Shown here piece after piece: positions 27,481 through 61,025 of a DNA stretch of 64,000 bases. Positions within the stretch are counted from its first letter, which is position 1. Each line of letters begins with the position of its first letter. The stretch is from a phage. The translations under genes were made by a program, and so were the position numbers. The notes under the pieces are model-generated. The model was not told the DNA's origin. It ran no database searches and was given only the letters and a program-made list of their open reading frames with translations. Location of the stretch: sequence record PZ386978.1, one strand, 5' to 3'.

Positions 27481-27517
27481 CTCATTAAAAGACCCTCTTA
27501 AAGACCTTTTAAAAAGG

Positions 27518-27533
27518 AGCCTCCGAAGAGGCT
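27518..27533 (-). terminator. Minus-strand intrinsic terminator with UUCG tetraloop after the 27545..27985 gene
   Basis: Minus strand reads AGCCTC-TTCG-GAGGCT followed by CTTTTTAAAA. Confidence 0.6.
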
Positions 27534-27544
27534 GCCTAGTCAAA

Positions 27545-27985
27545 TTAGAAAGGTTTTCTGCGTTGTTTGTTAATGTTAGCTTTCATAGCAGCTAAATGGT
27601 TTTGCTGTTCAATCAGTCGTGAACGTTCTTGATGACTAAGTGCCATAGTGTTCACATTCTCAATTGCTTGAGTGGCTTGTTTTAAAGCACGACCAATCTT
27701 ACCAGACATTTTACGTTTTGCAATAGTTGCTTGATGCTTAGGTTCAACCACACGATAACCAACACCCATTGAAGCAACCAGATAAATCTTCTCTTCTTTA
27801 AGAAGCTTCTCAATAAACTTCTCAAGCCGGTTTAGACGTGTAAGTGCATAAGCCTTCATTTCATCTTCGTACTTAACAATGTCGCCTTGATAAGTTGGCT
27901 TAACAATACCTAAGAAGGTATCCATCTCAGAATGTGATACAGTGTCACCGTAACTAAACTTTGCTGCTAATGCTTTTGTATTCAT
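27545..27985 (-). CDS. Hypothetical protein (array-flanked cassette, gene 2)
   Basis: 146 aa ORF; basic C-terminus; no recognisable motif. Confidence 0.55.
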   Translation of the reverse strand: MNTKALAAKFSYGDTVSHSEMDTFLGIVKPTYQGDIVKYEDEMKAYALTRLNRLEKFIEKLLKEEKIYLVASMGVGYRVVEPKHQATIAKRKMSGKIGRALKQATQAIENVNTMALSHQERSRLIEQQNHLAAMKANINKQRRKPF

Positions 27986-27987
27986 AA

Positions 27988-28593
<606 letters not shown>

Positions 28594-28650
28594 TTAGTTG
28601 ATTGTTAAGTTGTTTGTAAAGAACCCTCAACAGAAGACTCTTTAGAAACT

Positions 28651-28678
28651 TGGTAGATTTTTAACGTGGCTACTACCA
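28651..28678. other. Module B stem-loop: TGGTAG / CTACCA around a 16-nt loop
   Basis: Compensatory variant of the 27098-27125 stem with a near-identical loop (ATTTTTAACGTGGCTA). Confidence 0.7.
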
Positions 28679-28680
28679 TC

Positions 28681-28760
28681 CACCCATACCGCGCCCGACC
28701 CTACATTACCAGACCATACAAAGCCATACCCAACCAAACACTACCGCACCATACCGAACA
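28681..28760. repeat. Pentamer-periodic array B: 16 NNNCC/NNACA units
   Basis: caccc atacc gcgcc cgacc ctaca ttacc agacc ataca aagcc atacc caacc aaaca ctacc gcacc atacc gaaca. Confidence 0.9.
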
Positions 28761-40167: not shown

Positions 40168-41214
40168 ATGGAGAAGTACACATTAACAAAGCTTCCCGAT
40201 TCAGTTACACATGTTTTTATTGACTCTGACAGCATTGCCTATAAAGGTGCTTGTGTAGTTGAGAAAGCAAAATATAAATATGTCAATAAACTCACAGCAG
40301 AAGAATCTGATTCGTTTGATAATGCAAAAGATGCTGCAAGATGGTTAGCAGACCAGAGAATCCTTGTGGAAGAGCTTGGTCTGACATTTGATGAAGATGA
40401 ATGGGAAAGACAGACTTGGAAAGAAGCTAAGAGTGAAAAAGAAGCTATCATGGCTACTCAACAGGTGCTTCAGGAATGGCTTAAGGTTGTTGGTAAAGAA
40501 AGAACTTGGGTAGGTTATTTAACAGAGAAAGGTGTGCATAAACATAAAGACGTTAAAGGTCTTGAGCACCAATATCAAGGCAACCGTAAAGATGCTGTCA
40601 CACCAACACACCTAGTTGCTTGTCGTGAGTATCTTCTGTCAAGACCAGAGTTCAAACTAATTCTTGATGGGTTTGAAGCCGACTCTATCGTTATTGCTAA
40701 AGCTGAAAAGATGGGTAAAAAGGCTGCCTTAATGAGTATTGATAAAGACCTTCGCCAAGCTGAAGGAACTTACTGCATTGATATGACCTATGAAAAGTCA
40801 CCTTTGATTTTCATTGCTGATAACAACGTTGGTGAAATTTGGGATTGCCCAATAAAATCAACACCAAAAGCTAAGAAGACAGTTGGTGTAGGTTTTAAAT
40901 TCCTTTGTTATCAAGCTGTGGCTGGTGATAACGCGGATAATTATTTTGGTTTAAAGGGCGTTGGTAAGGCTACTGTAATGAAAGCCCTTGAAGGTAAAAC
41001 CACCTACAAAGAGTGTCTTGATGCAATTTATGAGCTTTATGCTAAGAAAGAGTCGTACACTTATGTCTCGTGGGATGGTCAAACAATTACCAGAACACCC
41101 TTAGAGTTAATGCAGCAACACTTTTTCTTAGCTTATCAGGAAAGAAACAAGAAAGACGATTTCACTTTTGATAAGTATGGGTGGACACCAAATGTTAACT
41201 CAACAAACTCTTAA
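40168..41214 (+). CDS. 5'-3' exonuclease / RNase H (FEN family)
   Basis: 348 aa; N-terminal VFIDSDSIAYK; helix-hairpin-helix-like GDNADNYFGLKGVGKATV. Confidence 0.75.
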   Translation: MEKYTLTKLPDSVTHVFIDSDSIAYKGACVVEKAKYKYVNKLTAEESDSFDNAKDAARWLADQRILVEELGLTFDEDEWERQTWKEAKSEKEAIMATQQVLQEWLKVVGKERTWVGYLTEKGVHKHKDVKGLEHQYQGNRKDAVTPTHLVACREYLLSRPEFKLILDGFEADSIVIAKAEKMGKKAALMSIDKDLRQAEGTYCIDMTYEKSPLIFIADNNVGEIWDCPIKSTPKAKKTVGVGFKFLCYQAVAGDNADNYFGLKGVGKATVMKALEGKTTYKECLDAIYELYAKKESYTYVSWDGQTITRTPLELMQQHFFLAYQERNKKDDFTFDKYGWTPNVNSTNS

Positions 41215-41692
41215 AGAGCACCTGCACTATGACCCCGAAACAGGGGTCTTTACTTGGTTAGTTGATAGAACAGGTAAGGCCAAAGCTGGCTCAGTAGCAG
41301 GTTTTAAACACCATAGCGGTTATATCTATATAAAACTCTTCGGAAAAAGATATGCAGCACACAGACTGGCATTCTTGTATATGAAAGGATACCTCCCAAA
41401 ATTTGTTGACCACAAGAATTGTATCAGACACGACAACTGGTTCGACAATTTGAGAGAGTGTAGCAGGTCAGACAACAACTGTAATGCAGTCAAAAGAAGA
41501 GATAATAAGTCTGGTGTGAAGGGTGTATATTACCACAAGCAAAGAGGTAGATGGGCTGCACAAGTTAAGCATAATAAAGTTTGCTACCATCTAGGCCTAT
41601 TTGACTCTGTTGCTGAGGCTGAAAAAGTTGTCAAAAAGAAAAGAGAAGAACTCCATAGAGAGTTTACAAATCACGGAGAAACTCATGAATGA
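41192..41692 (+). CDS. HNH homing endonuclease with AP2-like domain (paralogue of 31062..31590)
   Basis: MLTQQTLKEHLHYDPETGVFTW N-terminus; HNH segment HRLAFLYMKGYLPKFVDHKNCIRHDNWFDNL; AP2-like SGVKGVYYHKQRGRWAAQV; start trimmed to the ATG with a GGGTGGA ribosome-binding site. Confidence 0.8.
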   Translation: MLTQQTLKEHLHYDPETGVFTWLVDRTGKAKAGSVAGFKHHSGYIYIKLFGKRYAAHRLAFLYMKGYLPKFVDHKNCIRHDNWFDNLRECSRSDNNCNAVKRRDNKSGVKGVYYHKQRGRWAAQVKHNKVCYHLGLFDSVAEAEKVVKKKREELHREFTNHGETHE

Positions 41693-50925: not shown

Positions 50926-51260
50926 TGGACTTGTGGCTTTATGTAGCAGTTTGTGGGATTGTATGTCTGATAATCTTATTTATTCTTGGAGTAATGCGAT
51001 TTAGAGACATCATACAGTCAGATTTTTTGCCTGAGTTTGCCATGATAGTTGGGGTTATTACCCTTTGTGTCTTGGCAGTGTTCTATTCATACAAAACTGT
51101 GATATGGATGGAGGAAAACAATTGTGTAAAAACTCATCAGCATCGTGAGGTTACTCATTTTGTGAGTGTACTTAGTGGTAGCACCACTATACTTGTCCCA
51201 CAAACTTCTGTAGAGTATCTTTACACATGTGATAATGGTAAAACTATATGGTGGAATTAA
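50926..51260 (+). CDS. Membrane protein (hypothetical)
   Basis: Start chosen at ATG with GGAG ribosome-binding site; two hydrophobic segments. Confidence 0.45.
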
Positions 51261-51463
51261 CAATGACAACACTCTTAAAAGTATTGATACCCATACTACA
51301 TATAGCAGTCTTCTTCTTTGGTGTTAGTGTTATGGTATGGGGATTTTCAGACCCACAATGGAGTTTCTCATATCATGGTCAGATGGACTTATGGTCATGC
51401 TTCAAACCATTTTTAGGGTTAGCTATAGCATTCAGTGCATTACCAACTAAGGTGAAATTATGA
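51248..51463 (+). CDS. Small membrane protein
   Basis: 71 aa with hydrophobic segments. Confidence 0.4.
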   Translation: MVELTMTTLLKVLIPILHIAVFFFGVSVMVWGFSDPQWSFSYHGQMDLWSCFKPFLGLAIAFSALPTKVKL

Positions 51464-52745: not shown

Positions 52746-53012
52746 ATGGGAATTTTAGGTAATATGAAAGCTGGATTCTTGAAGGCATTGGCAAAAGCAG
52801 CAGCAATTGTTTCTATGACTGGAAAGCAGGTCGGTGTAGATGCTTCAGCGGTTGCACAGGTTCTTACAAGCCAAATTGAAAAGCAGCCTTACATCTATGT
52901 AGGCCGTGGCAAAGGTGGTAAGAAACAAGCCCACCGTCCGTCTGGTGCAGCAGCTATTAAACGAGCAGCTAAGAAAGCTCGTAACCGTAAACGTAATAAG
53001 AAGGCTAAATAA
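52746..53012 (+). CDS. Small protein with strongly basic C-terminus
   Basis: 88 aa; ...KRAAKKARNRKRNKKAK. Confidence 0.45.
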   Translation: MGILGNMKAGFLKALAKAAAIVSMTGKQVGVDASAVAQVLTSQIEKQPYIYVGRGKGGKKQAHRPSGAAAIKRAAKKARNRKRNKKAK

Positions 53013-53014
53013 TC

Positions 53015-53335
53015 ATGAGCAAAGTTTATAACACTCGCAAATTACAGATTTTCGTACTGTGCCAGTTTATGGCTAAAGAATATAACTTCTACTATTGTGG
53101 TACAGGTTTTATTAGCGATGATGATGGCTCATACCTCCCATTCAAAGAAGCTGTAAAACTCTTTAATGAAGAGAAAAGCTCTAAGAAAGATATTGAAAAG
53201 GTTAAACTAACCTACAGCAAGAAAGATAAGAAGATTATCTGCCTAGATAACTTTGTAAAAGTTACTGGAGAAGCAAAAGAGTTTATGGATGAGAGTGAAA
53301 TTTCATTCACAAGTATCTTGAAAGTAGCTCAGTAA
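53015..53335 (+). CDS. Hypothetical protein
   Basis: 106 aa ORF followed by a terminator. Confidence 0.45.
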   Translation: MSKVYNTRKLQIFVLCQFMAKEYNFYYCGTGFISDDDGSYLPFKEAVKLFNEEKSSKKDIEKVKLTYSKKDKKIICLDNFVKVTGEAKEFMDESEISFTSILKVAQ

Positions 53336-53348
53336 ACAGATACTATAA

Positions 53349-53373
53349 GGGAACTGTAAAGGTTCCCTTTTTT
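53349..53373 (+). terminator. Intrinsic terminator
   Basis: Stem GGGAAC / GTTCCC, loop TGTAAAG, then TTTTTT. Confidence 0.6.
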
Positions 53374-53387
53374 ATTTTGGAGATAAA

Positions 53388-53903
53388 ATGTATCTGTCAA
53401 ACCTGAAACGTTCGGCTGCAATGTCAGTTCTAAGACTCAGCTTTGAGGAACGTCAAGAGTTCATTGACTCCCACCAATATGACCCTTCTAACTCGAATCA
53501 CATGGTTCTTTGGAATCGTGATAGTACTCGTGAAAGAGCACTATTCCGCTACTACCCACATTACACCGTAGACAACCTGTATGAATGTTTTGTTGTGAAG
53601 AACACCATTACAGTACTCAATAAACTTTGCAGATACACAGGTAGTCAATCCTTCACATTAGGACATCACAAACCTGTTACAAAGGGTGGTGAGCATCACT
53701 GTGCAAACTGGTTTATCCAGACTAGACTTGATAACCAGAGGCAAGGTGATAGTCTTTTAAGTACCCCTAAGATGTCCTATGAAGAGCAAGAGAAATATAT
53801 CAAAAATAATATGCCAGATGTGCTTGACAACAACTATACAGATTTGGCAATATCTCTCCTGTTGAAGTTCGAGACAGTTTATAGGGCAACTTATAATGGC
53901 TAA
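53388..53903 (+). CDS. HNH endonuclease (free-standing)
   Basis: 171 aa; HNH-like GHHKPVTKGGEHHCANWFIQTRLDNQRQGD. Confidence 0.6.
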   Translation: MYLSNLKRSAAMSVLRLSFEERQEFIDSHQYDPSNSNHMVLWNRDSTRERALFRYYPHYTVDNLYECFVVKNTITVLNKLCRYTGSQSFTLGHHKPVTKGGEHHCANWFIQTRLDNQRQGDSLLSTPKMSYEEQEKYIKNNMPDVLDNNYTDLAISLLLKFETVYRATYNG

Positions 53904-54174
53904 AGAGAAGTGGGAGATTTTACCATTAGTCAGTGAAGGCGGTAATGGTTGTGAAATGTACATGATACGTGGTCATGTTCCAGAACCAATTGCACTTGAG
54001 ATGGTAAACAACTTTACAGATGGCTCTTACAAAGACTTAGGGGAGCCAACTATAAAGCAGCAATGGGTAAAGCCTGTACCAGACAGCACAGGTAACTGTA
54101 GTGTACTTTATCACGTTGTAGACCCTGCAAGATGCAAATCTGCAATGGCAGTAACAAACGTAACTTTTGATTGA
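53896..54174 (+). CDS. Hypothetical protein
   Basis: 92 aa ORF immediately upstream of the Prs-like gene. Confidence 0.4.
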   Translation: MAKEKWEILPLVSEGGNGCEMYMIRGHVPEPIALEMVNNFTDGSYKDLGEPTIKQQWVKPVPDSTGNCSVLYHVVDPARCKSAMAVTNVTFD

Positions 54175-55067
54175 GAGAGAAAACTATGAAAACATCTATC
54201 CGTGTTACAGTTCATTCACCAACTAAAGGGACTCATGAAGAAGAGTTTAACATCATCCAATTCCCTTCTGGTGAGATTGGTGGACACTTTTCACCAGAGT
54301 TTGTTGATTTCACTGCTTATGCAGCATCATCCATCAACAATGTGGTTATGATTGTAAAAGGTTATGATAAGGACACATTGTTTGCTGTGGCACTTGCTAA
54401 AGAGGCGGTGGATGACTTAGTACCTCATAAGTTTGCTATGAAGACTGTTATCTTTTACTATTTGCCAAATGCACGTTACGACCGTCACATGTTTAAAGGT
54501 GATGCAGCAGCTTTGAAAGTGTTTGCACAACAGGTTAATGCAATGGGTTTTGATGCAGTCTGTGCAGTTGACCCTCACAGTTACGTTCCAGACAACCTGT
54601 TTAACTGCTTCCAGAGTATTCCTCAAAAGGAGATTGCAGTTCACTATGCAAATGACCCTCTGATTGATTACTTAGTAGCCCCAGATGCAGGTGCTTCTAA
54701 GAAGATTGCAGAGACTGCTAAAGAGGTGGATAAACCATATATCACAATGTCTAAAGTGCGTAACCTTAAGACTGGTGAAATTACTGGTATGCGAATCCTT
54801 GATGATGTTGATTTGACAGATAAAACCGTCATGATTCTGGATGATATCTGTGATGGTGGTCGAACCTTCGTAGAAGCAGCAAAACATCTTCGTGAAGCAG
54901 GTGCAAAACGTGTGGAACTTTATGTAACACATGGTATCTTCTCTAAAGATGTTGAAAACCTTCTTGACAACGGTATCGACCATATTTACACTACGAACTC
55001 TTTAGGCGAAGCTAAAGACCGTGGTTTAACACATTATAGTCAAGTTACTGTAGCAAACCTTGATTGA
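54171..55067 (+). CDS. Ribose-phosphate pyrophosphokinase-like protein (candidate ADP-ribose pyrophosphokinase of a NARP1-type pathway)
   Basis: 298 aa; phosphoribosyltransferase-type binding loop VMILDDICDGGRTF; immediately upstream of a NadV-like gene. Confidence 0.75.
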   Translation: MREKTMKTSIRVTVHSPTKGTHEEEFNIIQFPSGEIGGHFSPEFVDFTAYAASSINNVVMIVKGYDKDTLFAVALAKEAVDDLVPHKFAMKTVIFYYLPNARYDRHMFKGDAAALKVFAQQVNAMGFDAVCAVDPHSYVPDNLFNCFQSIPQKEIAVHYANDPLIDYLVAPDAGASKKIAETAKEVDKPYITMSKVRNLKTGEITGMRILDDVDLTDKTVMILDDICDGGRTFVEAAKHLREAGAKRVELYVTHGIFSKDVENLLDNGIDHIYTTNSLGEAKDRGLTHYSQVTVANLD

Positions 55068-55076
55068 AAGTTTATA

Positions 55077-55096
55077 GGGGCTTAAAAGCCCCATTT
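55077..55096 (+). terminator. Weak terminator-like hairpin
   Basis: GGGGCT-TAAA-AGCCCC followed by ATTTT. Confidence 0.35.
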
Positions 55097-55112
55097 TGAG
55101 AGAGATTAAAAG

Positions 55113-56894
55113 ATGACTAAATCACTTTATGCAGTACCAGCAGGTTTAAATGCAGATGCTTACAAGGCATCACATATATATCAGTATCCAGATGCTACGC
55201 AATATCTTATGTTGAACCTAACACCACGTAGCGACAAATGGTTTAACAGCCCCTTAGCAATTGATGGTGTAGTGGCTTTTGGTATTCAACGTTTCGTTAA
55301 AGATTACTTGATAGACCATTGGAATGCCACCTTCTTTGAACGTGACAAAAAAGAAGCAATTGACGAAATCTTAGAAGTCATGAATGGTGTTCTGGGTAAA
55401 GATGCTATCGGTCGAGAGCATTGGGAAGCACTTCACGACTTAGGTTATCTACCAGTTGAAGTATACGCTGTAGAAGAAGGTACAGTTGTCCCTATGCGTG
55501 TCCCAATGATTGTCTTCCAGAACACTGTTTCAGGTTTCCATTGGGTAGCAGGTTATCTGGAAGATGCTTTCTCTGCTGAGATTTGGAAGGCTTGTACCAT
55601 TGCAACTATTGCATTGCATTATAAACGCATCTGTAAGAAGTGGGCTGACCTTACTTGTGACAATGACTTACATTTACCTTATCAGTGCCATGACTTTGCT
55701 ATGCGTGGTATGTCCGGCTTTACTGATGACGCATTTAACGCTGTAGGTCACTTAACCAGCTTTAAAGGAACTGATAGCTTCCCTGCTGTATACACGGCTA
55801 AACGCATCTATGGACAGTCTTACCCAATTTCTGATATTGGTAGTTCTGTACCAGCCACTGAACACTCTGTAATGTGTGCAAACATTGCTTGGGAAGGTGG
55901 TAATGAATTGATTGAAGAGGAAAGACGCTTTAAAGGTGAATTACAAACCTTCCGTCGCTTCTTAACAGAAACTTACCCAACTGGTATTGCAAGTATTGTT
56001 TCAGACACTTATAACTTCTGGAGAACTGTGTCAGAAATCTTACCAGCACTTCGCAAAGAGATTATGGAACGTGACGGTAAACTGGTAATTCGTCCTGACT
56101 CTGGAGACCCTGTACACATTGTCACAGGTTATAAAGCAATCCACTTAGAGTGTGCTAAAAAGGCTTATTATGAGCACCTAAGCAAGCTGGAAGCCAGTGA
56201 CACAATGCTGAATGCTGTTCTGAACATGAAGCTTGAAAACATCAGCTATGGTATTGCTGGATGGCTACTGTCAGAAGGCTACGAAATGGTTGTTGACCGA
56301 GAAGACTTTGAAGTTGCTGATACAGTGATGTTGAAAAATGCTTATATGGTTGGCTCTGCAAACGTTGTAACACGTCCTGTAGCAGAGATTGATGGAGCTA
56401 TTAAGACACTGTACAACATCTTTGGAGGAACTATTAACTCGAAAGGGTTTAAGGTACTGGATGAGCACATCGGCCTTATCTATGGTGACTCTATCACACT
56501 GGAACGTGCAAACGAAATCCTGAAGCGTCTGTATGAAATGGGTTTTGCAAGCTCTAACGTAGTGTTTGGCGTAGGCTCTTACACTTACCAGTACATGACT
56601 CGTGACACCTTTGCATTTGCTGTTAAAGCAACTCTTGCAAGCATTGGTGGTAAAGAGATTATGCTTGCAAAAGACCCTAAAACAGATAGTGGTGTTAAGA
56701 AGTCTGCTTTTGGTGGTGTAGCACCTATGTGGGATGGTGATAAGTTGAAAGCTGTAGATGGCTACGGATTCCAGAGCTTTGCAGATGCACTTGAACATCC
56801 AGCTTGTGCTTTACGTTTAGTCTTTAGTGACTCTGAGCAGTACGGTTACACATCTCTTGGTGATATTCGAAATAATATTGACAAGCAGCTTTAA
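55113..56894 (+). CDS. nadV: Nicotinamide phosphoribosyltransferase-like protein (NadV / candidate nicotinamide ADP-ribose transferase)
   Basis: 593 aa with NAMPT-family length and overall sequence character. Confidence 0.8.
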   Translation: MTKSLYAVPAGLNADAYKASHIYQYPDATQYLMLNLTPRSDKWFNSPLAIDGVVAFGIQRFVKDYLIDHWNATFFERDKKEAIDEILEVMNGVLGKDAIGREHWEALHDLGYLPVEVYAVEEGTVVPMRVPMIVFQNTVSGFHWVAGYLEDAFSAEIWKACTIATIALHYKRICKKWADLTCDNDLHLPYQCHDFAMRGMSGFTDDAFNAVGHLTSFKGTDSFPAVYTAKRIYGQSYPISDIGSSVPATEHSVMCANIAWEGGNELIEEERRFKGELQTFRRFLTETYPTGIASIVSDTYNFWRTVSEILPALRKEIMERDGKLVIRPDSGDPVHIVTGYKAIHLECAKKAYYEHLSKLEASDTMLNAVLNMKLENISYGIAGWLLSEGYEMVVDREDFEVADTVMLKNAYMVGSANVVTRPVAEIDGAIKTLYNIFGGTINSKGFKVLDEHIGLIYGDSITLERANEILKRLYEMGFASSNVVFGVGSYTYQYMTRDTFAFAVKATLASIGGKEIMLAKDPKTDSGVKKSAFGGVAPMWDGDKLKAVDGYGFQSFADALEHPACALRLVFSDSEQYGYTSLGDIRNNIDKQL

Positions 56895-56909
56895 AAGTAT
56901 ATGATAAGA

Positions 56910-56930
56910 GGCTCCTACGGGAGCCTTTTT
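56910..56930 (+). terminator. Intrinsic terminator
   Basis: GGCTCC-TACG-GGAGCC followed by TTTTT. Confidence 0.65.
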
Positions 56931-56947
56931 AATTTCTGGAGAAAGAT

Positions 56948-57283
56948 ATGAAAATCAAAGAGATGAACATTAACGTTGTCCTAGAAGAACGTTGGGAAAA
57001 CATTAAGAAACCTGAAGATGGTAAAAAGTTCCTTAACAAAATTTTAGTAGCAGCTAAAGAAGAACTGACTGGCAAGATTGCAGCAGCAATCACAATAAAA
57101 GTCTGTGTAAAAGGTCTTCCACAACATCACCAATTTGCACTTGACGAGTTTAAAGAAAGCTTCTACAATCCAAACAAACAGATACTTGAAAGTAACTTTG
57201 CAGTGTCTACAAGTATCGTCCATGACAGAAGCTTTATCCTTTACAAAAACATGAGGGGTGAGTCATGCAAGCATATTGGATAG
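56948..57283 (+). CDS. Hypothetical protein
   Basis: 111 aa ORF. Confidence 0.45.
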   Translation: MKIKEMNINVVLEERWENIKKPEDGKKFLNKILVAAKEELTGKIAAAITIKVCVKGLPQHHQFALDEFKESFYNPNKQILESNFAVSTSIVHDRSFILYKNMRGESCKHIG

Positions 57284-57441
57284 AAATTTTACTGTCACTT
57301 GGTAGTGTAGCAGTATTTGTTTACCTTCTTTGCAAGTACTATGCAGAGCACAAGAAGTGTGATTACTGCAACGGGGAAGGGTATACGAGAGCAGGCTGTT
57401 GCCCTATTTGTGGTGGTTCTGGTAAAATGTTTAATAAGTAA
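57265..57441 (+). CDS. Membrane-anchored DnaJ-type zinc-finger micro-protein (58 aa), below the ORF-track cutoff
   Basis: ATG with GAGGGGTGA ribosome-binding site; hydrophobic N-terminus then CDYCNGEG and CPICGGSG (two CxxCxGxG repeats). Confidence 0.35.
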   Translation: MQAYWIEILLSLGSVAVFVYLLCKYYAEHKKCDYCNGEGYTRAGCCPICGGSGKMFNK

Positions 57442-57469
57442 TTTAACAGTAAACTAAGAGGAAAGTATT

Positions 57470-59836
57470 ATGCGCATGGTAAACGACCACGCAGAAGTGA
57501 TTAAGAGTTCAACTTCTTTGGAGACATCTCAAGCACAGATTACAATGACACCTGAAATGTTCAGCCTTTTGAGTTCAGGTGTATACACATTCAAAGAAAG
57601 GGCAGTAATTCGTGAACTGTCATGTAACGCAGTAGATGCTCAAAAAGAAGCTGGAAAAGAGAACATCCCATTCCATGTGCATTTACCTACTCGATTTGAG
57701 CCTTACTTTGAAGTCCGTGACTTTGGAACTGGTTTAACCCATGACAAAGTAATGAGTTTGTATCTGAACTATGGGGCTTCTACGAAGAATGACTCCAATG
57801 ATTACATTGGTGCAATGGGTATCGGCTCAAAATCCCCATTTGCAATTGCTCAGTCATTCACAGTATCTAGCTATGTTGATGGTGTTGTTAATAAGTACTC
57901 TGTTTACCTTGAGAATGGTATCCCTCAAGTAACTAAGCTTACTACCAACCCAACAAATGAACCCAATGGTTTAGCTGTACGTGTAGCAGTTGCTGACCAT
58001 CGTATCTCAAAGTTCTTTGAAGAGGCTGGTCACGTATACTCATACTTTGCTGTAAAACCAGAAAGTAATATTGTGTACGACGATGTATTAGCAGATATGA
58101 ACGTCATTGCCCGTGAAGAGGGTGTTTATGATGCCATGATTCATAAGCAAAGTTGGCGCTCTAGCGGTAACAGGACAGAGTTTAATGTGGTGATGGGTAA
58201 TATCACCTATCCAGTTAACATGGAAGCGTTACTTGGTGATGATTTCTTCAAAGTCTTGCCAGAATTTTTCCGTAGGAGCGTAGACCTTGTAAACATCTAC
58301 ATGCCTATCGGTTCAGTTGCTATTGCAGCTTCTCGTGAAGCATTGCAGATGAATGATACGACAAAAAATGTTATCATTGAAGCTACTAAAAAGATAACTG
58401 AAGCAATTACAAAGGATGTTATCAAGAAAGTTAACAGCCAACCTACACTCATGGATGCTGCACAGGCTTATGCTGAGTTACGTTTGAACTCACGAGAGAT
58501 GTTTAATGCTGTGTGTCCAAAGCTAGAGTGGGGAGGCGTTAAGCTTGATTCTCTGGAAGAAGAATTACTAAACATTCGTCGTGGGATTATCTACGCAGAA
58601 GACGGCTCAGTCATTTATGAACGTGACGGTAAAGGTAATATCAAGGTTGATAGGAACGGGAACAATATCCCTAAAGTGGATTATCTTTATAACCCAGTTG
58701 CTTATGTCAAGTTCAACTCTTTAGAGAGTAAGATTCGTGCAACAGCACTTTCCTACACTCAAGAGGCAAGTATGTTCAATATCTTTGGTGCAATGCGTAA
58801 AAGCCAAATTGAACAGTTTTTGTTCGTGATTAATGACCGTCGTAATAAAAATGGCACTGAGAAGACTGTAGGCCGCAATCAGATTCTGCGTGGTGCATGT
58901 CGAGACTACGCTAACGAGTCAAGCCTGTTCCACAGATACAATGGTATTGTGTTTGTATTCTCGACTGAAAAAGAGTTAGATGATTTAATCAATCTGCATA
59001 AACTTGATAAAAGTTTGTTAAAGATTGTGAAGATGTCTGATAAGGAACACCATTATCAGCGTAAAGAAGCTGTGAGGGGTGTTGTAAAACTCTGGAAAGC
59101 TGTTCCATCAGAAACTAAAGCTTCATACACAGAGGTGTCAGAAGACCTAGATACAATTGAAGAACCCCAGCTTTATATCAAGGCAGTAGGCGACACAGTT
59201 GATGGTGAATGTTTTTGCTCATCCCCAGAAGATGTAGCTAAAACAATTGCTAATTTTATAGGAAAAACAGTCTATGTTTTCCGAAAAGCAAATTGGAAAA
59301 AGATACCAGAAGACTGGATTGAAGTAGATGAGAAGCTATTGAATGACAGCTTAACTGATGTTCACTGGATTAATCATAACAGGTATATGACACGTATCTA
59401 TATGAATGGTGTCCTTGACCTTACAAGTAGTTGGATTATTGCCAGAAACTTTACGTTTAATAACAAGAAGATTTCTCGCGGGTATTGCTATTCACGAGAT
59501 ACAAACAAAACCATCTTCTTAGAAGGTAATGAGAATGCTGTTGAGGCAATGTTTGGTAAGATTCAGTATGTGGCTGCACCGTTTGCATACACTTACACTA
59601 TCAGTGTTCTTCAGGATTTGAAGTCATGCCTTGACAATGATACAAAACTGTACAAAAAGATTAAGAAAGCGGGTGACCGCATGGTTATCAAACTGACAAA
59701 CTACCTTTCAAAAAGAAAACAAGAAAACTTCTTGCTTTCCCATTTAGATTGGAATAAAGTGTCACCCATCGAAGTGAGTAAGTTCTTAGGCTTTGATGTG
59801 AAGTGTGTTCCAGAAGGGACTACAATTTACGATTAA
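57470..59836 (+). CDS. rIIA: rIIA-like protein with GHKL-type ATPase N-terminal domain
   Basis: 788 aa; GHKL N-box ELSCNAVDA and G1 box DFGTGL; directly upstream of an rIIB-sized gene. Confidence 0.7.
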   Translation: MRMVNDHAEVIKSSTSLETSQAQITMTPEMFSLLSSGVYTFKERAVIRELSCNAVDAQKEAGKENIPFHVHLPTRFEPYFEVRDFGTGLTHDKVMSLYLNYGASTKNDSNDYIGAMGIGSKSPFAIAQSFTVSSYVDGVVNKYSVYLENGIPQVTKLTTNPTNEPNGLAVRVAVADHRISKFFEEAGHVYSYFAVKPESNIVYDDVLADMNVIAREEGVYDAMIHKQSWRSSGNRTEFNVVMGNITYPVNMEALLGDDFFKVLPEFFRRSVDLVNIYMPIGSVAIAASREALQMNDTTKNVIIEATKKITEAITKDVIKKVNSQPTLMDAAQAYAELRLNSREMFNAVCPKLEWGGVKLDSLEEELLNIRRGIIYAEDGSVIYERDGKGNIKVDRNGNNIPKVDYLYNPVAYVKFNSLESKIRATALSYTQEASMFNIFGAMRKSQIEQFLFVINDRRNKNGTEKTVGRNQILRGACRDYANESSLFHRYNGIVFVFSTEKELDDLINLHKLDKSLLKIVKMSDKEHHYQRKEAVRGVVKLWKAVPSETKASYTEVSEDLDTIEEPQLYIKAVGDTVDGECFCSSPEDVAKTIANFIGKTVYVFRKANWKKIPEDWIEVDEKLLNDSLTDVHWINHNRYMTRIYMNGVLDLTSSWIIARNFTFNNKKISRGYCYSRDTNKTIFLEGNENAVEAMFGKIQYVAAPFAYTYTISVLQDLKSCLDNDTKLYKKIKKAGDRMVIKLTNYLSKRKQENFLLSHLDWNKVSPIEVSKFLGFDVKCVPEGTTIYD

Positions 59837-59915: not shown

Positions 59916-61025
59916 ATGACTATTAAAACTAAAGCACAGATTGACGCAGAAATTTACAAACTGGTTAAAGAGGGTAAGCTGACTAAAACAGCTATTGCAC
60001 AGAAATTTAACACCTCAACCCGTTCAGTCGGTCGTGCTGTAGAGCGTCATGAAGCAACCTTAAAAGGTAAGAAAAAGGTAGCTTCTAAACCAGCTACGAA
60101 GACTTTGAAGCAAGTTGCTAAATCAGTTAAAAAGAAAGCTGGAAAACCAGTTGAAAATGTTGTTAAAGAGACTGTACAAAAGGCTCCGGTAAATAAACTA
60201 CACGAAGCTATGCAGAATGGTAACCAGATTGAGTATATGATTACTGGCGATTCTGTTATCATGACTTTCGGTGCAGATTCTGAAATCGTTGAATCTACCC
60301 ATCCGAACTACAAAGAAATCGTAATGGCTGTTGTATCCGGTGAGTATAAGAAAGCTTTCGAACTGATGAACATTCGTAAGTCTATCGAAAACTTCACTCA
60401 GGGTGCTATCACAATCAAAGGTGACAAGCTATTCTACGGTGCTGTTGAGATGCGTTCTACTCTGGTTGACCGTATTCTTCACATGATGAAGACTGGAGAT
60501 AAAGGTTTTGAACGCCTTGTGATGTTCTTCGAAAAACTGATGGAAAACCCATCTAAAGACTCTGTAGAACAACTTTGGGGCTTCGTATCTCACCTTGATG
60601 TTGAAATTGATGAAGAAGGTTACATCATTGGTTGGAAGAAAGTATCTACTCGTGAAGGCAAGCTGGTTGACTCCCACACCTACAGAGTACCTAATGATTT
60701 GGGTAACATTGTAGAAATGCCACGTTGGATGGTTGATAATAACCGTAACGTGACTTGCTCTCAAGGTCTTCATGTTGGTGCTTGGGATTATGTTCGTTGC
60801 TTCTCAGGTGATACAATTCTGAAGGTTCGTGTCCATCCACGAGACGTTGTATCCGTACCAACTGATTACAATGATATGAAGATGCGCTCGTCTCGTTATG
60901 AAGTTGCAGCAATCGTTGATAATCAACGTAAAGTGCTGAAAGCATGGGATGGCAAGACTGAAGCTTTGCATGTCATCGTTGGCACTGCTGGAGAACTTAT
61001 CTCCCAACGTAAACGTGAAATCTAA
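59916..61025 (+). CDS. rIIB: rIIB-like protein
   Basis: 369 aa ORF immediately downstream of the rIIA-like gene; assignment by position and size. Confidence 0.5.
   Translation: MTIKTKAQIDAEIYKLVKEGKLTKTAIAQKFNTSTRSVGRAVERHEATLKGKKKVASKPATKTLKQVAKSVKKKAGKPVENVVKETVQKAPVNKLHEAMQNGNQIEYMITGDSVIMTFGADSEIVESTHPNYKEIVMAVVSGEYKKAFELMNIRKSIENFTQGAITIKGDKLFYGAVEMRSTLVDRILHMMKTGDKGFERLVMFFEKLMENPSKDSVEQLWGFVSHLDVEIDEEGYIIGWKKVSTREGKLVDSHTYRVPNDLGNIVEMPRWMVDNNRNVTCSQGLHVGAWDYVRCFSGDTILKVRVHPRDVVSVPTDYNDMKMRSSRYEVAAIVDNQRKVLKAWDGKTEALHVIVGTAGELISQRKREI

Follow-up and report, generated by a model that had tools for sequence, protein, structure and literature searches.

A Prs-like and NAMPT-like gene pair in a Felixounavirus phage as a very probable two-gene NARP1 operon

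The 64,000-nucleotide stretch of phage DNA analyzed here (sequence record PZ386978.1; hereafter, the window) contains two adjacent plus-strand genes in its open reading frame (ORF) list, one resembling ribose-phosphate pyrophosphokinase (Prs) and, after a spacer of 45 nt, one resembling nicotinamide phosphoribosyltransferase (NAMPT). Does this pair rebuild nicotinamide adenine dinucleotide (NAD+) from the debris left by NAD+-depleting host defenses, i.e., is it NAD+ reconstitution pathway 1 (NARP1), or does it carry out the reactions that its database names imply? Judging by sequence comparison with characterized phages, we assign a probability of about 0.93 to the window pair being a NARP1 operon, made up of adps, encoding an ADP-ribose diphosphokinase, and namat, encoding a nicotinamide ADP-ribose transferase. 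This assignment is carried by orthology and sequence motifs; the absence of a gene for nicotinamide mononucleotide (NMN) adenylyltransferase (NMNAT), taken alone, would be a weak argument. The two genes are as follows.

54186-55067, plus strand: adps, putative ADP-ribose diphosphokinase (Prs-like), 293 amino acids; called from the ORF list, ribosome-binding site, homology, and PHROG
55113-56894, plus strand: namat, putative nicotinamide ADP-ribose transferase (NAMPT-like), 593 amino acids; called from the ORF list, homology, and motifs

Both ORFs are real genes and not chance ORFs. The adps product matched the Pfam families Pribosyltran (E = 4.8e-11) and Pribosyl_synth (E = 2.6e-10) and PHROG 619, named "ribose-phosphate pyrophosphokinase" (E = 3.6e-98), and the namat product matched NAPRTase (E = 6.5e-35), NAMPT_N (E = 9.1e-06), and PHROG 448 (E = 2.6e-202). 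The first-pass annotation had described a Prs-like gene immediately upstream of a NAMPT-like gene at 54171-56894, and the ORF list, Pfam, and PHROG all agree with this arrangement; the end of that interval stands, but its start is likelier to be 54186. The mechanical ORF of the first gene runs from a TTG codon at 54171 to 55067. This TTG shares nucleotides with the stop codon of the preceding ORF and lacks a ribosome-binding site, and the product length found in relatives is that obtained from the ATG at 54186, so the TTG was rejected as the start. A GAGAGAG sequence, the putative ribosome-binding site of adps, stands 6 nt before this ATG, and the upstream regions of adps and namat have the motif TTGAGAGAGA in common. 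Since translation from 54186 gives the 293 amino acids annotated in Escherichia phage JohannRWettstein (Bas63, MZ501086) and matched from end to end in other phages, and since the ribosome-binding site fits, the ATG at 54186 is most likely the start of adps.

None of the antisense ORFs inside adps and namat matched a PHROG family. The minus strand of namat holds an antisense ORF of 175 amino acids (56271-56798), cysteine-rich and implausible in sequence; a stop-free antisense stretch as long as this one arose in 1 of 500 synonymous-codon shuffles, and Bas63 has a stop at its codon 26. It is probably a chance ORF.

Megablast of the pair region, with 25 kb around it, placed the window in the genus Felixounavirus (Ounavirinae), which comprises the Felix O1-like myophages of Escherichia and Salmonella. 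The region matched 258 records, the best at about 96% identity and none identically. From the terminase gene on, the window is collinear with Bas63, positions 1-64000 corresponding to Bas63 223-62902 with a few indels, and Bas63 genes 79 and 80 have the same position, order, sizes (293 and 593 amino acids), and 45-nt spacer as the window pair. Ungapped alignments give 80% identity between Adps and bas63_0079, over 293/293 residues, and 98% between Namat and bas63_0080. The Adps of Salmonella phage Si3 is closer still (98.6% identity), and more than 150 public Felixounavirus genomes carry an Adps of the window type (up to 98.6% identical).

This orthology matters because NARP1 was discovered in the Bas63 operon bas63_0079-bas63_0080 (Osterman et al., bioRxiv 10.1101/2024.02.11.579819). 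Deletion of genes 79-80 from Bas63 lowered plaque numbers about 20-fold on cells carrying SIR2-HerA and deepened their NAD+ depletion, and ADP-ribose pyrophosphate (ADPR-PP) was detected only when defense-carrying cells were infected with wild-type Bas63 (bioRxiv 10.1101/2024.02.11.579819). In the same study, SPbetaL1 Adps converted ADP-ribose (ADPR) and ATP to ADPR-PP in vitro, and SPbetaL1 Namat made NAD+ from ADPR-PP and nicotinamide, favoring ADPR-PP over phosphoribosyl pyrophosphate (PRPP). In an independent genome-wide knockout screen of Bas63, deletion of either g79 or g80 alone lowered plating on Sir2-HerA by 1e4- to 1e6-fold, and complementation rescued it. The enzyme activities of NARP1 have been demonstrated for the SPbetaL1, ICP1, DyoEdafos, and P. 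foliorum homologues. In the supplementary tables of the discovery paper, the window-type Adps allele (MKTSIRVTVHSPTKG...) is already listed, and an association with Adps is flagged for the Namats of Si3, heid, wV8, HY02, and Felix O1. Consistent with these findings, the identification of the pair as phage NARP1 in the first-pass annotation gains support both from its orthology to Bas63 79-80, including identity, order, spacing, and collinearity, and from the sequence signatures described below.

By this reading, a NAD+-depleting host defense, such as SIR2-HerA/Nezha, DSR, type I Thoeris, or a similar system, would split NAD+ into ADPR and nicotinamide. Adps would then move the β-γ pyrophosphate of ATP to ADPR's distal ribose, giving ADPR-PP and AMP, and Namat would exchange the pyrophosphate of ADPR-PP for nicotinamide, giving NAD+ directly, with neither an NMN intermediate nor an adenylyltransferase, so that the phage would retain enough NAD+ for its replication. 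A counter-defense role against NAD+-depleting systems has been established in two independent studies for the Bas63 orthologues, to which the role of the window pair would correspond by analogy. We infer that the window's own Adps and Namat, including the diverged N-terminal half of Adps, would act as their orthologues do.

The residues known from characterized Adps enzymes are in place. For ICP1 Adps, the named catalytic and acceptor residues are R87, H121, D161, K185, D212, D213, and D216, together with the PP loop (PMC13586617), and the catalytic lysine lies on a β-hairpin (K185 in ICP1, K162 in SPbetaL1; PMC13586617). In an alignment with the ICP1 gene product, for which the gene was taken from GenBank, window residues R97, H131, D167, K190, D219, D220, and D223 and the PP loop DDICDG fall on this set; the window protein thus has the catalytic lysine, the acceptor residues, and the PP loop of an Adps. 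Its sequence identities, its presence in the table of the discovery paper, and its hidden Markov model scores, used here in place of a formal phylogeny, put it in the phage Adps clade and not among bacterial Prs enzymes.

Namat can be examined for a feature that separates the NAD+-forming enzymes from Nampts. In Namats, a selectivity clamp helix (SCH) of the form GS-X-phi-X-phi-X-phi-TRD places aromatic X residues in a stack on the adenine, and a variable selectivity clamp loop (SCL) supplies an extra stacking residue, either Arg40 as in SPbetaL1 or, as in Bas63, the residue that comes after a Lys/Tyr (PMC12774641). The window Namat has GSYTYQYMTRD at residues 488-498 and PRSDKW at residues 38-43 (within PRSDKWFNSPL), both identical to Bas63, and its D15, Y17, F195, R198, D221, H251, R327, and D329 align with the Nampt-like catalytic core of SPbetaL1 Namat, which includes the nicotinamide-stacking Phe/Tyr and the catalytic His. 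As NARP2-type comparators in this alignment, we took the Nampts of Vibrio phage D491s and Citrobacter phage Maroon, assuming the type from the kind of phage (KVP40 and T4 types); they have GGGLLQ at the SCH site and a short loop in place of the SCL. The clamp therefore discriminates between the two enzymes, provided that the comparators are of the NARP2 type. The window Namat also matched PDB entries 9W5W/9W5X with E = 1.4e-128; we take these to be the SPbetaL1 Namat crystal structures of PMC12774641, because their chain numbering fits the residues named there.

A route through NMN would need an adenylyltransferase. With NadD and NadR of Escherichia coli and the Nmnat of phage nt-1 as phmmer queries (--max, E ≤ 1), we searched the six-frame ORFs of four targets: the window, the complete genome of Bas63, LNA6 (60000-88347), and pinkbiff (1-50000). 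The positive controls were recovered. LNA6 and pinkbiff, the two closest relatives, represent the last 23 kb or so of this phage's genome, which lies outside the window. No NadD-, NadR-, or NatV-like ORF was found at E ≤ 1 in any of these four targets. The earlier remark that the window has no visible NMNAT gene thus holds under this search, and it extends to Bas63 and to the relatives that stand in for the missing part of the genome. The use of that absence in favor of NARP1 was correct in direction but is weak by itself, because host enzymes could adenylate NMN. NadR-like genes occur in some 800 phage records; the 40 rows shown include T5-like phages, ICP1, jumbo phages, and others, but no Felixounavirus. 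ICP1 genomes have a NadR-like gene besides their Adps-Namat pair, and none was seen in the Felixounavirus genomes checked. NARP1 and a NadR-type route can therefore coexist in one phage. The ICP1 record MW794152 begins its Namat coding sequence at an internal Met and labels the product a "hypothetical protein."

Several points weigh against the NARP1 assignment or limit it. All experimental data come from orthologues and homologues of the window proteins, and over residues 1-180 the window Adps shares only about 65% identity with the Bas63 allele that was tested. Poor purification kept both Bas63 proteins from being characterized in vitro, so the in vitro data come only from distant homologues, the ICP1 Adps being 32% identical. 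The adenine-contacting F18 and F92 of ICP1 Adps align to H17 and M102 of the window protein, in a poorly aligned region in which F103 is adjacent to the latter. Without ADPR-PP, Namat homologues can also turn PRPP into NMN in vitro, as would be expected under plain NMN salvage, in which a true PRPP synthetase and a true Nampt/NadV would make NMN for the host NadR, NadD, or PncC to turn into NAD+. This is the literal sense of the annotation, since the Pfam, PHROG, and NCBIfam names are all those of Prs and NAMPT/NAPRT, and Adps does just pass the broad TIGR01251 model (126 bits against a cut-off of 113). That model is the sole NCBIfam Prs model it passes, however; on the Prs equivalogs it scores 44-107 bits against cut-offs of 296-536 and fails them all. 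By comparison, ICP1 Adps scores 98 bits on TIGR01251 and E. coli Prs 423-533 bits on two broad Prs models. Neither the C-terminal alpha11-alpha12 module nor the DDMIDTG loop of a canonical Prs is present in Adps, and ribose-5-phosphate, the Prs substrate, gave no measurable product when used as a control with SPbetaL1 Adps (bioRxiv 10.1101/2024.02.11.579819). The window Namat also has the adenine clamp that the Nampt comparators lack. On all of this evidence, we regard NMN salvage as very improbable. Even less credible, to the point of being nearly negligible, is the idea that the Prs-like enzyme feeds PRPP to an adjacent nucleotide cluster (nrdA/B/D/G, thymidylate synthase, and DHFR) and that the NAMPT-like gene is an unrelated neighbor. 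The pair does lie just downstream of nrdD and nrdG, within a block of nucleotide-metabolism genes, but either single deletion in Bas63 gives the same Sir2-HerA phenotype, and in 97% of cases an Adps-clade gene has a Namat homologue no more than ten genes away (bioRxiv 10.1101/2024.02.11.579819). The window pair conforms to the rule of the defining study (same strand, within ten genes), with its 45-nt spacer and no strong terminator between the genes, and Adps-Namat adjacency is kept in unrelated phages, namely, Listeria phage LMTA-94, ICP1, and phiEa104. In addition, Adps matches positions 36-224 and Namat positions 236-534 of the 547-residue profile PHROG 12872; because one profile covers both proteins, some phages must encode an Adps-Namat fusion, which independently supports a functional coupling of the two.

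The remaining alternatives keep NARP1 and change its details. Codons 1-180 of adps (54186-54725) are only 0.71 identical to Bas63 at the nucleotide level, with a saturated synonymous divergence (dS) of about 1.9, whereas dS is 0.04-0.44 in the neighboring genes, in the 3′ part of adps, and in namat, the flanks being 90-99% identical; the C-terminal catalytic half of Adps (residues 181-270) is about 99% identical to Bas63. Two Adps allele classes coexist in Felixounavirus, with identity to the window of 90% or more in about 156 records and of 60-90% in about 97, so the window type is the commoner one. In ICP1 Adps, the N-terminal domain bears the RF loop and the adenine-contacting residues, and a diverged N terminus might accordingly shift the acceptor range or the regulation of the enzyme, for example, by letting the enzyme tolerate further ADPR derivatives or evade a host factor, with the downstream chemistry unchanged. 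We give this very little chance of being right. The ratio of nonsynonymous to synonymous divergence (dN/dS) in codons 1-180 is 0.11, indicating purifying selection on both alleles, and both alleles carry the same residue at every catalytic and acceptor position that is conserved between ICP1 Adps and Prs. Moreover, the pattern fits ordinary recombinational mosaicism, as exemplified by Felix O1, whose Adps is a chimera of a Bas63-like N terminus and a window-like C terminus. The dS and dN values therefore point to an old adps allele moved by recombination under purifying selection, not to recent diversifying selection, and the N-terminal divergence looks like recombinational mosaicism within a counter-defense gene.

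Namat has a peculiarity of its own. One insertion of about 77 residues (344-426; window 56142-56390) lies between the RPDSGDP strand and the next helix, and another of about 15 residues (258-275; window 55884-55937) follows the catalytic His. SPbetaL1 Namat, ICP1 Namat, and the Nampt comparators have neither, and the site of the first holds a different insertion in a Listeria phage Namat. The main text of the structure paper mentions no insertion or extra domain (PMC12774641), and the isolated insertion, scanned against Pfam, gave no match of note (DUF4528, E = 0.056). An AlphaFold2 model built from the Namat sequence alone was unusable and was set aside (predicted local distance difference test score, 32; predicted template modeling score, 0.20). 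Since Bas63 Namat carries the same insertion, it is compatible with function in vivo. Taken more broadly, a functional difference of the window NARP1 is unlikely; it might consist of an Adps N-terminal allele that alters acceptor range, oligomerization, or sensitivity to host countermeasures, or of a Namat insertion that acts as an extra module for docking Adps or for gating an enlarged donor pocket. With the pair read as NARP1, the residual uncertainty is only whether this exact allele pair behaves like its orthologues.

NARP1 is one of the main phage routes past NAD+-depleting immunity, including SIR2-HerA, DSR, type I Thoeris, Kongming, and other systems, and its correct recognition predicts which defenses a phage can overcome, which is relevant to the choice of therapy phages. 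The study by Osterman et al. reportedly appeared in Nature in 2024. For discovery, the window offers nothing new, as the same operon in the same genus is the founding example and the allele is already in the tables of that study. Its value is one of correction: the public records and the curated model libraries that we searched name the genes "ribose-phosphate pyrophosphokinase" and "nicotinamide/nicotinate phosphoribosyltransferase," which are the wrong reactions for this clade.

The operon and its surroundings contain the following further features.

55077-55092, plus strand: GC-rich hairpin GGGGCU-UAAA-AGCCCC followed by AUUUU (sequence and fold)
56906-56929, plus strand: terminator-like stem-loop with a 10-bp stem and a T-run (consensus scan)
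53347-53369: terminator-like site (consensus scan) preceding four plus-strand genes
53388-53903, plus strand: orf171, 171 amino acids, orthologue of Bas63 gp77 (ORF list)
53896-54174, plus strand: orf92, 92 amino acids, unknown function (ORF list)

The hairpin at 55077-55092 stands between the adps stop codon (55065-55067) and the namat ribosome-binding site. The RNA fold of 55060-55115 has an energy of -12.8 kcal/mol (z = -2.8), and the hairpin is kept in Bas63 with one loop substitution. The terminator scan, which requires 5 T, did not call it, and an Rfam search over 53000-57600, the hairpin included, gave nothing credible. It may be a weak or partial terminator, an attenuator, or an RNA-stabilizing element that tunes the ratio of Adps to Namat. 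The stem-loop at 56906-56929 is likely the end of the transcription unit, an assignment whose evidence is positional, as the terminator-like sites in the scanned region are as many as expected from shuffled sequence.

Upstream of adps, orf171 and orf92 are probably cotranscribed with adps-namat, because both lie between the terminator-like site at 53347-53369 and adps; they are context rather than demonstrated parts of NARP1. They match PHROG 3500 and PHROG 4726, both of unknown function, and have no Macro or RyR domain. Across Ounavirinae genera, an orf171 homologue stays upstream of adps-namat, separated from the pair by one small gene that is unrelated. In Erwinia phage phiEa104 (L014, 2682-3168), this homologue is split over two frames, gp111 and gp112, which could reflect a frameshift, a pseudogene, or a sequencing error. 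Bas63 gp77 has been reported to counter the Ec67 retron, and rIIA and rIIB (g84 and g85) to counter qatABCD; the NARP1 operon thus stands within a run of reported counter-defense genes (53388-53903, 57470-59836, and 59916-61025). The paper describing that counter-defense activity gives Bas63 gene 77 a GIY-YIG domain, whereas orf171 showed only a weak HNH PHROG match here. A PADLOC search gave only weak generic matches to the phosphoribosyltransferase fold for Adps (ShosT and PsyrT) and none for its neighbors.

The position downstream of NARP1 seems to vary. Right after the namat terminator, Bas63 has bas63_0081 (114 amino acids; L003, 6509-6853), which matched nothing in Pfam, NCBIfam, or PADLOC and is not in the window (junction at about 56943). 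Elsewhere in the window, three segments (27517-28758, 41178-41689, and 50928-51285) have no counterpart at the collinear Bas63 position, which makes them candidates for mobile or accessory insertions. Felixounavirus genomes often carry homing endonucleases.

Among the known pathways that serve the same purpose, the restoration of NAD+ during depletion, are NARP2 (Nampt plus Nmnat, Vibrio phage KVP40 type), which uses a NAMPT-fold enzyme as the window pair does, and NARP3 (PnuC plus a NadR-like protein, Bas30 type). We rejected NARP2, as no Nmnat was found and the SCH site reads GSYTYQY and not GGGLLQ, and NARP3, as no NadR-like ORF was found (PnuC was not searched for). Two extended forms share the core Adps-Namat pair, NARP1-AP, which adds the Macro-domain phosphatase Adpp, and the RyDEP-extended NARP1, which adds a RyR-domain glycosidase of cyclic ADPR. 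The six ORFs between nrdG and rIIA, three on each side of the pair, have no Macro or RyR (PF02026) domain in Pfam, and both extended forms were rejected since their defining genes were not found there. By published logic, an operon with no Macro/Adpp gene should not rescue NAD+ after aRES-type cleavage to ADPR-1″-phosphate.

At the level of the enzymes, E. coli Prs, a class I PRPP synthetase, shares with Adps the fold and the Lys/Asp/His catalytic framework at 23% identity, but it has the loop DDMIDTG where Adps has DDICDG, and Adps lacks about 19 residues at the C terminus. When the PDB was searched with the Adps sequence, every chain returned was a canonical Prs (best, 4TWB, E = 5.4e-19), and no Adps entry appeared. 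The structurally characterized ICP1 Adps (apo, substrate, and product forms; PMC13586617) is 32% identical to the window protein overall, but the two agree at R87, H121, D161, K185, D212, D213, I214, C215, D216, G217, and F221 (ICP1 numbering), have the same DDICDG PP loop, and both lack the Prs C-terminal alpha11-alpha12; the PP-loop residues A218, A219, and S220 of ICP1 are G, R, and T in the window. On the Namat side, bacterial NadV has the fold in common. SPbetaL1 Namat has equivalents of the window's core residues (D13/Y15, F189, R192, D215, the catalytic His, R306, and D308) and a GS-aromatic-T-Y-Q-Y-x-TRD helix. The window Namat is about 100 residues longer, its SCL has 4 residues more and Lys-Trp instead of Arg40, and the SPbetaL1 residues F392, S190, and A362 are replaced by Tyr, Ala, and Ser, respectively. 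Taken together, the gene content and motifs identify the predicted window operon as the two-gene core form of NARP1, an already described system whose archetype comes from the same genus.

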